From a virus (Duplodnaviria > Heunggongvirae > Uroviricota > Caudoviricetes), in IMG/VR virus record IMGVR_UViG_2718217714_000002, positions 1 to 20,207 of that record: 20,207 bases of DNA, one strand, 5' to 3'. Below, piece by piece: positions 12,538 to 14,254 of this stretch. Below the pieces are notes generated by a model. The model searched no databases. It had not been told where the DNA came from and saw only the letters and a program-made list of their open reading frames with translations. The position numbers and the translations under genes are program-made. Each line of letters opens with the position of its first letter. Position 1 is the stretch's first letter.

Positions 12538-12559
12538 AAAAGCCACCGTAGTGGCTTTT
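12538..12559. terminator. Bidirectional rho-independent terminator between Q (+) and the converging minus-strand cargo operon
   Basis: AAAAGCCAC-CGTA-GTGGCTTTT. T-rich 3' flank on both strands (AGCATTTT on plus, AGCTTTTATTT on minus). Confidence 0.6.
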
Positions 12560-12565
12560 AGCATT

Positions 12566-12715
12566 TTAGGATTGTGCAGGTAATGTTTTGTTCAATTTAG
12601 TAAAGAAGTTAGATTGGCTTGTTACAGTACGTCGACTCTTTCCAGAAGTACTCAACTGAAAGAAATCATTGATGCTTTTGGGTTGAGTTCTTTCATAGGC
12701 TTGCTTAAGTGACAT
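12566..12715 (-). CDS. Candidate small ORF (49 aa) immediately downstream of the proteasome-like gene
   Basis: My own translation of the reverse complement: MSLKQAYERTQPKSINDFFQLSTSGKSRRTVTSQSNFFTKLNKTLPAQS. Possible GGGGA SD about 5 nt upstream. Below the ORF-track size cut-off. Coding status unproven. Confidence 0.25.
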   Translation of the reverse strand: MSLKQAYERTQPKSINDFFQLSTSGKSRRTVTSQSNFFTKLNKTLPAQS

Positions 12716-12738
12716 GTGTTCCCCTTGTCTATTTGTTG

Positions 12739-14022
12739 CTATGACCGTGAAAAGTAGTGATGGTTCAGTTCTTTTGCAAAATAGTGCTTACGTTTAACCC
12801 AGATAAAACCATCAGCTTTAGAAATGATTGCAACATCTATGGGGCCTCCCACTGTTTCAGTATCATCGGAGACCTTGCGCTTGAAAGCGGTTAAATTTAC
12901 TAATGATTCAGCCATATAAGCTAAATCTTGCTTGGGTAAAAACTCGATCATATTTACGACTTTGTCAACATAGTTTTCTCGGACAAAGCTATCAATACGC
13001 CCCTTGCAATCGGAAACAGTTCTGCGCACTACATCAACTATAGCATCCTTGGCTCCTTCGATATCTGAAGTGGGCACCAAATCTGTGATTACTGAATCAA
13101 TACCATCAAGTAAATCGCCGATAGAACGTTGATACTCAGCATGAAGATTTTGGATAAGATGTGAACTAGCTCCTTGCATGAAAGCAGAAACTTCATCCTC
13201 TTGCGCAAAGGGAGTCACGCCGCAATTAGGAGTGATGCAGCACTTGTCAGCATCTGTGGTTTTCCTTATTTTATCATTAAAGAAGCCACAAACTTCATAT
13301 GATAATACTTTAGGGTAATAGTCTTTATCGCCATAACCTGCAATCACAATCCCAGAGACGGAACCAATATCACTTTGCTTGCATATCATAGCTGCCAATA
13401 CATCACTAACTGCTTTTGTCAACTGTGGAGTTATGGATATTGAATCAAAGTCACTAAACTTTTGAGCAATGATGCGTTGGGTAATTGATGAAGCATAGGT
13501 TTGGGCTGCTTGTTCATCATCCGGAGTAAAACCATCAAAGTAATTAATATCAGATAATTTTGTAAGGAGATCGTTGCAATAATTCGTGAGGTCTGTAACA
13601 AATTGATTCTTATCGAAGTTAACGAGATATGTTGGTTCGAGACCTTCAGAAAAAGCATCAACAAGCATGCTGAATACAATCTCGCTCAGGAAGTGATAAA
13701 GATGAGCCTCACGCATACCTGGTGTGATGATTGATTTAGCTGACTGTAGATAATTGAAGAAATCCTCAGCATATTCCTCCAAAGAGTCAAAACATTTAGA
13801 GCCTAAATCCTTTCTATAAGCCTTAATGATAAGCTCCCATGGAGCTGTGCAGAGATCACCAGTTCCATATACCATCAAACCTACAGGATGATGTTTAGTG
13901 AGAGCGAAAAGCTTTTCAGCGCCATTATAGATTTTATGTTTGCCGCCTCCAGAAATCGTTACAGCTGAATCTGCGGCTAAAGCTACTGCGGTCTTGTTAA
14001 ATACGGCTATTTCTGCTGTCAT
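12739..14022 (-). CDS. Enlarged proteasome beta-subunit/HslV-like (Ntn-hydrolase fold) protein, 427 aa
   Basis: N-terminus M-TAEIAVFNKTAVALAADSAVT...EKLFAL...GLMVYGTGD aligns by eye with HslV and archaeal 20S beta (Thr1, Asp17, Lys about 33-36). C-terminus VGGPIDVAIISKADGFIWV matches the beta-subunit [17 protein letters not shown] motif. About 200 extra residues lie between. AT-rich, no canonical SD. Confidence 0.7.
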   Translation of the reverse strand: MTAEIAVFNKTAVALAADSAVTISGGGKHKIYNGAEKLFALTKHHPVGLMVYGTGDLCTAPWELIIKAYRKDLGSKCFDSLEEYAEDFFNYLQSAKSIITPGMREAHLYHFLSEIVFSMLVDAFSEGLEPTYLVNFDKNQFVTDLTNYCNDLLTKLSDINYFDGFTPDDEQAAQTYASSITQRIIAQKFSDFDSISITPQLTKAVSDVLAAMICKQSDIGSVSGIVIAGYGDKDYYPKVLSYEVCGFFNDKIRKTTDADKCCITPNCGVTPFAQEDEVSAFMQGASSHLIQNLHAEYQRSIGDLLDGIDSVITDLVPTSDIEGAKDAIVDVVRRTVSDCKGRIDSFVRENYVDKVVNMIEFLPKQDLAYMAESLVNLTAFKRKVSDDTETVGGPIDVAIISKADGFIWVKRKHYFAKELNHHYFSRS

Positions 14023-14132
14023 TTTTTACATAGGGTTTATATGTTGTGTAATGAGAAAAATACAAAAAAATTAACGCGTACGCAAAAATTCTTGTAATCT
14101 GTTAAGAGTGGTTACTTCGCCACACAGCTTAA

Positions 14133-14157
14133 ACCCGCCGTCGAGCGGGTTTTTTTG
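14133..14157 (+). terminator. Plus-strand intrinsic terminator-like hairpin in the divergent promoter region
   Basis: ACCCGC-CGTCGA-GCGGGT followed by TTTTTTTG. No plus-strand gene lies upstream of it. Confidence 0.45.
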
Positions 14158-14254
14158 TACCTGTAAACTTGGTGCAGTACGGTAAACACGCTGGTGGTAG
14201 TGAATACTGACTTTTTATCTTGCTGGCTTTTTAGACAAGAGTTATTGGTATGTC

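Follow-up and report, generated by a model that had tools for sequence, protein, structure and literature searches.

Fuchs, Alva & Lupas (2021) described 22 new subfamilies of proteasome homologues, those named PMI being 'Proteasome homologs with Multiple Insertions' (PMC8665760). Two of these subfamilies, PMI-3 and PMI-4, carry long insertions after H1/H2 and between H3/H4, which were argued to hinder ring and double-ring assembly; the PMI subfamilies were reported with no function, and with no genomic context or co-occurrence hinting at one (PMC8665760). PMI-4 is numerous and extends over Proteobacteria, Firmicutes, Actinobacteria, Bacteroidetes, PVC, Euryarchaeota and phages (PMC8665760, Table 1). 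We analyzed a 20,207-nt stretch of prophage DNA (hereafter the window; IMG/VR record IMGVR_UViG_2718217714_000002) which carries a gene for a 427-aa protein of this kind, followed by a 49-aa open reading frame (ORF). The large protease gene and the small ORF downstream of it are referred to together as the cassette.

The 427-aa protein has its insertions at the same two sites as PMI-3 and PMI-4. Its family further shares with PMI-4 a core with Thr1, Asp17 and Lys33, the lack of a propeptide, the abundance and the distribution over phyla. Compared by description (insertion sites, distribution), the family is probably PMI-4, the subfamily represented by HDY66466.1. The fold and the protein family, catalogued in 2021 without a function, are not new. 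Two things appear to be new here: the protease has a conserved micro-protein partner, and together they can be recognized as a self-contained mobile cassette that occupies cargo slots of prophages and satellites. PMI-4 as published comes with neither the coupled small ORF nor the setting, as cargo of prophages, satellites and islands, that we find here. The searchable literature yielded no functional study of the family and no defence or counter-defence system built on a proteasome-like protease, in line with what an initial annotation of the window had stated.

Of the genes at these loci, only the protease and its small partner are conserved across bacteria and archaea. We sampled 80 homologues and their loci from many bacterial and archaeal phyla. 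In a survey of partner position, 78 of 82 loci with a full-length gene showed a same-strand ORF of at least 35 aa starting between -30 and +60 relative to the protease stop codon. These ORFs are typically 45-65 aa long and basic, and their start is mostly no more than ~30 nt away from the stop codon. A hidden Markov model (HMM) built from 38 of the downstream ORFs was run against 8,117 six-frame ORFs from 83 loci and produced 44 matches at E<=1e-3, all 44 of them at the downstream position and none elsewhere. The partner start is translationally coupled to the protease stop: it overlaps the stop codon in 28 of the 44 cases and falls within 20 nt of it in 15 more. The initial annotation had called for a survey of neighborhood conservation of both the small ORF and a nearby methyltransferase gene; the position of the former is conserved, whereas the latter is not (see below). 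No other neighbor is conserved either, the largest cluster among 138 flanking genes having three members. Upstream same-strand ORFs were considered as a third conserved gene and rejected, since none of their clusters exceeded this size.

In most cases the partner consists of a Lys-rich tail, a motif [YF]xS[MIF]xE[FY][EK]xx[YF][FL]P, a linker and an amphipathic helix D[PA]xxLGxxLAxEsLxxIR. Its single invariant residue is the Pro of the F-P motif, which follows aromatic residues, and the protein is basic in 91% of cases. The structural model predicts a disordered tail and helices kinked at the F-P Pro; a pLDDT of 79 combined with a pTM of only 0.38 suggests that the partner probably folds on binding. 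When its profile was searched against 5.8 billion proteins, 64 proteins of 54-69 aa were retrieved, none with a Pfam domain, and the few that are named are called 'hypothetical protein'. The micro-protein is usually missed by gene callers. The reciprocal test gave the same association: three of the hits that lay outside the seed set were looked at, and all three have a 426-431 aa MTAE… homologue immediately upstream. Natural fusions of protease and partner were sought and none was found, the long homologues all having mis-called N-termini. In a few loci, such as one from a Spirochaetaceae metagenome-assembled genome (L030) and two from Vibrio (L019 and L020), no downstream small ORF could be recognized. 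The main ORF of L030 is 467 aa long and a partner-like sequence overlaps its 3' end in another frame, an arrangement that may reflect a frameshift or an assembly error.

The large protein is a proteasome-beta-type N-terminal-threonine hydrolase with a two-layer beta-sandwich core. Its ORF was found exactly where the initial annotation had placed it, and the translation, which begins MTAEIAVFNK, contains the motifs quoted there (TAEIAVFNKTAVALAADSAVT, EKLF, GLMVYGTGD and VGGPIDVAIISKADGFIWV). An AlphaFold2 model computed from an alignment of 53 homologues is confident (pLDDT 84.7, pTM 0.80), and its alpha-beta-beta-alpha N-terminal nucleophile (Ntn) sandwich is superimposable on proteasome subunits. 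Foldseek agrees on the proteasome-type fold with a probability of 1.00. Lower-scoring matches in the structure comparison were Anbu (15.4), BPH (12.0), HslV (11.5) and Connectase (11.4), then other Ntn hydrolases; the BFVD viral structure library gave no significant match.

Profile searches point to the same fold once the insertions are set aside. Against 177,635 PDB sequences, a core-only profile, that is the family profile with both insertions removed, had the Thermoplasma beta subunit as its top three matches (E=4.9e-4). The full-length family profile reached this subunit only at E ~1, through the C-terminal motif, so that removal of the insertions was needed for significance. In the resulting register with Thermoplasma beta (3c91_H), T2 corresponds to Thr1, D18 to Glu17 and K37 to Lys33, and the C-terminal GGPIDVA is aligned by HMMER to SGGMIDVA. 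The full protein returned nothing significant from Pfam, NCBIfam, PADLOC or the PDB sequences; its only match in family scans is a full-length one to phrog_5990, of unknown function. The Pfam Proteasome family PF00227, suggested as a check in the initial annotation, is not matched at threshold by either the full or the core-only protein, and among 30 core-only relatives one reaches E=0.026.

The triad T2, D18 and K37 is invariant in 80 of 80 homologues, as is Met1-Thr2. Further invariants are S19, K67, G224, G229, G231, D396, D404 and G405 and, within the C-terminal core, A371, D396, V397, D404, G405, W408, K412 and Y414. The proteasome beta/HslV-like hallmarks noticed in the initial annotation are thus no coincidence, and we reject both a chance resemblance and a non-coding ORF. 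The glycine motif is a partial exception. G53 in GLMVYGTGD, the likely equivalent of Gly47, lies where it would be expected, and its column is Gly in at least 90% of mostly gammaproteobacterial homologues, but it is not conserved family-wide and varies between G, N, Q and S from phylum to phylum. It is the backbone that forms the oxyanion hole. Thr after an initiator Met is a standard substrate of methionine aminopeptidase. Over-long database entries all proved to be mis-called starts with an internal MTAEIA, which implies that the mature enzyme needs only Met removal.

That the protein is enlarged by extra residues had been recognized, but these had been taken for one block between two aligned ends. 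Two insertions are found instead, and between them lies a central core (aa 215-286) that had been missed (Table 1). In the model, which thereby delimits the inserted regions, both insertions fall at sites used in 20S proteasomes for pore lining and ring-ring contacts. Predicted helices span residues 101-126, 130-134, 138-156, 167-188 and 199-214 in insertion 1, and 287-315 and 318-360 in insertion 2. The N-terminal core comprises S3 (38-40), S4 (47-54), H1 (62-73) and H2 (81-94) among its elements, and the central core E223-229, E238-248, E251-256, E268-271 and H275-283.

Table 1. Cassette features and protein segments, with positions in the window
Feature	Position	Strand	Remarks
427-aa proteasome-beta-like Thr1 (Ntn) hydrolase gene	12739..14022	-	RefSeq: hypothetical protein WP_000123148.1
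N-terminal catalytic core, aa 1-97	13732..14022	-	S1-S4, H1, H2; Met1-Thr2, Asp18, Lys37, Lys67
Helical insertion 1, aa 98-214	13381..13731	-	After H2, 'pore-loop' site; five predicted helices; net charge -10
Central core, aa 215-286	13165..13380	-	S5-S8, H3; AGYG (G224, G229, G231), P237, PFAQ
Helical insertion 2, aa 287-360	12943..13164	-	Between H3 and H4; long predicted helical hairpin; net charge -6
C-terminal core, aa 361-427	12742..12942	-	H4, S9-S10, H5; FKRK, ETVGGPIDVA, DG-F-W motifs
49-aa partner ORF	12566..12715	-	Charge +6; 23 nt downstream of protease stop; unannotated in RefSeq
Shine-Dalgarno sequence AAGGGGAA of the 49-aa ORF	12719..12726	-	3 nt upstream of ATG; read from sequence
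Intrinsic terminator of the two-gene operon	12535..12562	-	Terminator scan: 12 pairs, 6 G-C, then T-run
Weak candidate sigma-70 promoter	14036..14065	-	TTGTAT, 18-nt spacer, TATAAA; read from sequence
Extent of cassette-specific low-GC DNA	12535..14053	.	GC profile, genome matches

The two insertions evolve differently from the core. We measured the proportions of nonsynonymous (pN) and synonymous (pS) differences by region between the window copy and its closest relative, an Enterobacter copy with 86% identity. The core segments show a pN of 0.04 (N-terminal), 0.018 (central) and 0.013 (C-terminal), the last being the most conserved part of the protein, against 0.16 in insertion 1 and 0.10 in insertion 2, that is 4-10x faster evolution in the insertions. 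A pN/pS ratio near 0.2 indicates that the insertions, although fast-evolving, remain constrained. Column conservation over the 80 sequences gives a similar picture, with 0.24-0.38 in the insertions versus 0.8-0.95 in the most conserved core blocks. A recognition domain would be expected to look like this, as a hypervariable module joined to an invariant enzyme; the pattern is no proof of positive selection.

At the window locus, the cassette is a self-contained two-gene operon. The initial annotation had the protease gene end at a terminator and the 49-aa ORF follow; the terminator is present, but the ORF sits between it and the protease gene, so that the unit consists of two genes and then a terminator. 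This terminator had also been described as bidirectional. It is flagged by the scan on the minus strand only, the T-run on the plus strand being weaker; its stem lies 3 nt past the stop codon of the Q antiterminator gene on the plus strand. Other statements of the initial annotation hold: Q, on the plus strand, ends at 12532 and is convergent with the protease gene; the cassette is AT-rich, with 37.5-40.5% GC versus 51-55% in the Q/RusA/DUF968 region to the left; and the protease ATG is preceded by CCCTATGTAAAAA, with no GGAGG-like Shine-Dalgarno (SD) sequence. The candidate promoter lies below the threshold of the scan and would yield, by inference only, a very short leader without an SD.

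The 49-aa ORF, offered at first as a candidate, is a real gene. It belongs to a divergent clade variant, M[SK][LM]KQ[AS][YF]ExTQPK..[NK]DFF…NFF[TK][KQ]L, common to the cassettes of E. coli, Enterobacter, Klebsiella, Salmonella and Serratia DD3, and its orthologues always have a strong SD, for example AAGGAGG or TAGGAGGG. Compared with the Enterobacter copy, pS is 0.78 (saturated) and pN 0.13, with 36 of 49 residues identical, which identifies a coding gene under purifying selection. The ORF is called in only five database clusters; one called copy, R8F93_003275 of Enterobacter soli, directly follows the protease homologue R8F93_003274.

The family to which the large protein belongs is extensive. 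A search of 1.84 billion representatives at E<=1e-3 yields 6,017 clusters at 50% identity, nearly all of 420-445 aa and aligned from profile position 1. Full-length relatives with 32-45% identity occur in most bacterial phyla, and archaeal relatives in Methanosarcinales, ANME-1, ANME-2, Altarchaeum, Micrarchaeota and Woesearchaeota; such full-length similarity across nearly all phyla implies horizontal transfer. Within E. coli the distribution is narrow: 9 of 5,426 complete genomes, at least several of them enterotoxigenic, contain the whole region, in each case inside a prophage, and in most of these nine the two ORFs of the cassette are unbroken and show 100% identity. Resemblance to other lambdoid phages restarts at ~14054-14056, and in ~3,000 E. 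coli genomes the match is confined to DNA rightward of ~14054 (from query position 1655). We found no exact empty site for the cassette in the searched genomes, because the Q allele of the window (12170-12532, plus strand) is not found in E. coli without the cassette (~10 records, at least 99% identity). In other phages, a different Q allele is joined to the same downstream region (terminator, helix-turn-helix (HTH) ORF and methylase, from 14054 onward). This Q-allele pattern therefore points to arrival of the cassette by mosaic module exchange.

Prophages, where it uses the Q-to-lysis slot, carry the pair as cargo, and so do phage satellites, plasmids and genomic islands. In lambdoid prophages of Enterobacter, Klebsiella and Salmonella, the enterobacterial relatives are always found after Q and before the holin/lysozyme genes, on the strand opposite to the late operon, and the Salmonella cassette adjoins HicAB. 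In Providencia phage PSTRCR_117lys, Q is followed by an adenine methylase, the cassette and a holin, with the cassette on the late strand and its small ORF annotated; the Q-to-lysis moron slot named in the initial annotation is thus shared by all four. In Stenotrophomonas phages the cassette stands beside holin and lysozyme, again opposite in strand to the late operon. In seven Streptococcus satellite prophages it is terminal cargo, the last gene pair of a ~10 kb element, with an annotated 55-aa ORF after the protease (positions 9274-10653 in satellite phage Javan103, L102). This 55-aa ORF has no detectable similarity to the pan-phylum partner, so that it is another divergent partner variant. 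Elsewhere the cassette is found in an integrase-AlpA-primase (P4-like) satellite of Serratia, in an integrase/GPA island of Alteromonas, next to type I restriction-modification (R-M) genes and integrases in Vibrio, and on ten plasmids. Across phyla, immediate neighbors include Avs1a, LmuA (Lamassu), MzaA (Mokosh), DRT, SoFic, type I R-M, Zeta, ParE and CI repressors.

We favor the explanation that the cassette is a mobile conflict cassette in which a Thr1 Ntn hydrolase is paired with a cognate small regulator; taken as a whole, we give it an even chance. Methionine aminopeptidase would remove Met1 and expose Thr as the nucleophile, no propeptide being needed. The insertions would probably block classical double-ring assembly, and the enzyme, probably no classical barrel, would use them as a gate or specificity module for access to its active site. 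The small protein would most likely be the cognate regulator, binding the often-acidic insertions and the substrate cleft, where its aromatic-aromatic-Pro motif may act as a poorly cleavable pseudo-substrate that keeps the enzyme silent. Were the partner lost, displaced or cleaved, for example on infection by another phage, a sequence-selective protease would be freed and could cut a host or phage protein, and infection would be aborted or excluded. In the window, the lysogen would express the cassette, which runs opposite to the late operon, from a promoter that belongs to the cassette. The charges of the window pair (+6 for the partner, -10 and -6 for the insertions) are compatible with electrostatic binding of partner to insertions. 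A defence or conflict role as such is a tentative proposal, possible but short of probable. We consider somewhat unlikely the broader idea of a widespread, unrecognized class of mobile conflict systems (anti-phage or exclusion) built on a proteasome-family Thr1 enzyme, with insertions that would sense or select the target and a micro-protein of ~50-60 aa that would gate or mediate its activity, possibly through cleavage or transfer of the Connectase kind at the conserved aromatic-Pro bond.

Several observations weigh against this explanation. Many of the pan-phylum loci are flanked by housekeeping genes (Hsp70, Cpn60, CTP synthase), and an integrase is found within 6 kb in only 7 of the 80, which is too weak to claim general residence in mobile elements; outside the Gammaproteobacteria and Firmicutes, the association with mobile elements or defence is modest. 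Neither the 427-aa nor the 49-aa protein matches any model of PADLOC-DB v2.0.0 (dated 2023), even at E<=10. No more than 59-75% of family members have insertions with a net acidic charge, and how the partner would bind and what it would do is conjecture on our part. Between the 49-aa ORF and the pan-phylum partner, neither hmmsearch (E 0.69) nor hhalign (E 0.16) detects homology, and the ORF does not contain the F-P motif, so that the pseudo-substrate idea may not apply to the window locus itself. A second gammaproteobacterial variant ('gamma-2', LxEWxxxFxP) does link to the pan-phylum partner (P=7e-4), and the 49-aa ORF may be either a fast-diverged orthologue or a non-homologous replacement at the same position. 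Lastly, the accessory residues of proteolytic beta subunits, Ser129, Asp166 and Ser169, are not conserved in the family, nor were they listed as family-defining (PMC8665760). In the HMM register Asp166 falls on a variable S/T/H column, with Glu389 one position off, and Ser169 on the near-invariant Val391; the Ser129 region reads PFAQ. Together with the family-wide variation at Gly47, this leaves room for a chemistry other than proteolysis.

A tiny gene in tight coupling with a second one, a patchy and horizontally transferred distribution and carriage on plasmids and prophages might also describe a toxin-antitoxin (TA) or addiction module, in which a Thr protease toxin would be checked by a small labile protein and would stabilize its carrier elements with no dedicated antiviral role. 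The neighboring HicAB, ParE/MqsA-like and Zeta genes, which mark the sort of island in which TA modules collect, fit such a module. However, the cassette persists intact in an already defective, immobile prophage, and fast-evolving insertions would be less expected of simple addiction than of target recognition in an arms race. We regard a pure addiction function as unlikely; it also overlaps the conflict-cassette explanation, many TA systems now being known to act in defence.

The lack of conservation of the accessory residues would agree with a second alternative, that of a Connectase-like, sequence-specific transpeptidase or ligase that would cut the partner at [YF][FL]-Pro, hold its N-terminal basic fragment on Thr1, and transfer or exchange it for tagging or activation. 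Connectase itself is monomeric, cleaves at X-Pro and forms a Thr1 amide (PMC7980362). The insertions of our protein probably prevent ring formation, and the only invariant residue of the partner is precisely a Pro after aromatics. Against this, the protein shows neither of the Connectase hallmarks, which are the loss of H1/H2 and two helices inserted between S3 and S4; the partner of the window clade has no F-P motif, and there is no sign of an acceptor substrate. We hold this alternative to be improbable.

A comparably slim chance goes to a cellular quality-control or stress protease in the sense of HslV, Anbu or BPH, that is a self-compartmentalizing oligomer for which the small protein would be an assembly factor or cap, and which would be an incidental hitch-hiker on mobile elements. 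The closest structures are indeed self-compartmentalizing proteases, and the housekeeping and chaperone neighbors of many pan-phylum loci, as well as the low integrase enrichment, can be read this way. Yet a housekeeping enzyme would hardly be confined to 9 of 5,426 E. coli genomes, always in a prophage, or be so patchy across domains; furthermore, neither an AAA+ protein nor any conserved partner other than the small ORF accompanies it, and its insertions lie on ring-forming surfaces.

A benefit to the phage in its own cycle, by counter-defence (degradation of a host immune protein) or by control of lysis or late-gene timing, would agree with the position at the Q/late-operon junction in several lambdoid phages, with the late-gene strand in PSTRCR_117lys and with the holin and lysozyme neighbors in Stenotrophomonas phages, but has the slimmest chance of all, as the cassette runs against the late operon and has a terminator of its own in E. 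coli, Enterobacter, Klebsiella, Salmonella and Stenotrophomonas, recurs in satellites, plasmids, archaea and non-phage chromosomal sites, and occupies a slot that lambdoid phages use for morons in general, the stx genes being an example.

The prophage that carries the cassette is lambdoid and defective and occupies the ynfA/ydfJ (Qin) locus of E. coli; one of its holin genes is frameshifted and a lysin of the GH108 family truncated. The decayed lysis/tail region (window 16739-17799) comprises the frameshifted holin, the GH108 lysin cut to 126 nt and a tail-fibre fragment. To the right of the cassette, at 14131-14152 on the plus strand, a strong terminator hairpin (AAACCCGCC…GGCGGGTTT) with a T-run is kept in many lambdoid phages. 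It is a plausible candidate for tR', at which the late transcript that depends on Q would terminate, and, if so, the cassette is located between Q and the pR'/tR' region. An N6/N4 DNA methyltransferase gene (14623-15669, plus strand) adjoins the cassette, and genes for tRNA-Thr and tRNA-Gly (15838-15991, plus strand; RefSeq annotation of the identical region) lie between it and the holin genes. A methyltransferase of ~348-350 aa is found near the cassette in three unrelated contexts: the window prophage, the Providencia phage (L103, 4406-5452) and a metagenomic island (L105, 3816-4868) that also holds ParE/MqsA-like genes; it recurs at one further locus (L106). We considered it as a conserved partner and rejected it, methylases being rare among the 80 pan-phylum loci. 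Moreover, the HTH ORF directly upstream, which forms one block with the methyltransferase in this prophage, is present in ~3,000 E. coli genomes without the cassette. Because the methyltransferase is absent from most of the pan-phylum loci, its association with the cassette is probably co-residence in cargo regions and not a functional link.

Two further regions of the prophage, on the plus strand, may be mentioned. Genes for a BCCT-family transporter and a DUF2254 protein (4646-7984) are inserted between the replication region (DUF977) and the hokD/DUF968/rusA/Q block, and are metabolic cargo unusual in a lambdoid element. A second low-GC ORF (8267-9610; 33-35% GC) encodes a 447-aa hypothetical protein (WP_073520295.1) with no Pfam or PADLOC match, which may be another uncharacterized moron.

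With a defined partner, an orphan family of ~6,000 clusters at 50% identity becomes a directly testable two-component system. In the Gammaproteobacteria and Firmicutes, the cassette occupies the prophage and satellite cargo slots where defence genes accumulate. Should it prove to be a defence or exclusion system, proteasome-type chemistry would extend to prokaryotic immunity; were a conflict class with a micro-protein confirmed, it would represent the first immune function for a prokaryotic proteasome homologue; and a sequence-specific ligase of the Connectase type might have biotechnological value.

Among known proteasome-type enzymes, the 20S beta subunit of Thermoplasma and eukaryotes (PF00227) shares with the 427-aa protein the Thr1, Asp/Glu17 and Lys33 register and the C-terminal GG-x-[IV]-D-V-A-[VI]-I. 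Our protein is twice as large and carries two helical insertions, on the pore-loop and ring-ring surfaces, and the cassette comes with no alpha subunit, propeptide or AAA+ partner. HslV (ClpQ) has a compact subunit of ~175 aa, forms a dodecamer and depends on the adjacently encoded HslU ATPase, whereas the 427-aa protein has two insertions and no ATPase among the conserved neighbors (138 flanking genes); 20S beta subunits and Anbu both come nearer to it than HslV does.

Connectase (MJ0548, and the Methanosarcina mazei enzyme) is a monomer that binds a short motif, cuts an X-Pro (Asp-Pro) bond and forms an amide with Thr1 (PMC7980362). The likeness would lie in a ring-less proteasome homologue with protein-specific helical additions and one specific partner, recognized through a short motif with Pro at P1'. 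In contrast to Connectase, which lacks H1/H2 and has two helices inserted between S3 and S4, the 427-aa protein has both H1 and H2, and its S3-S4 gap is only 6 residues, without a helical insertion. The Connectase substrate MtrA is a large, unlinked housekeeping protein and the enzyme is restricted to methanogens.

Pup, of the actinobacterial Pup-proteasome operon, is another small protein of ~60 aa, largely disordered and helical on binding, that is encoded next to a proteasome beta gene. It is acidic, encoded upstream, ends in GGQ/E and requires PafA, Dop and the Mpa ATPase, none of which accompanies the window cassette; we know of no sequence similarity between Pup and the small protein of the cassette.

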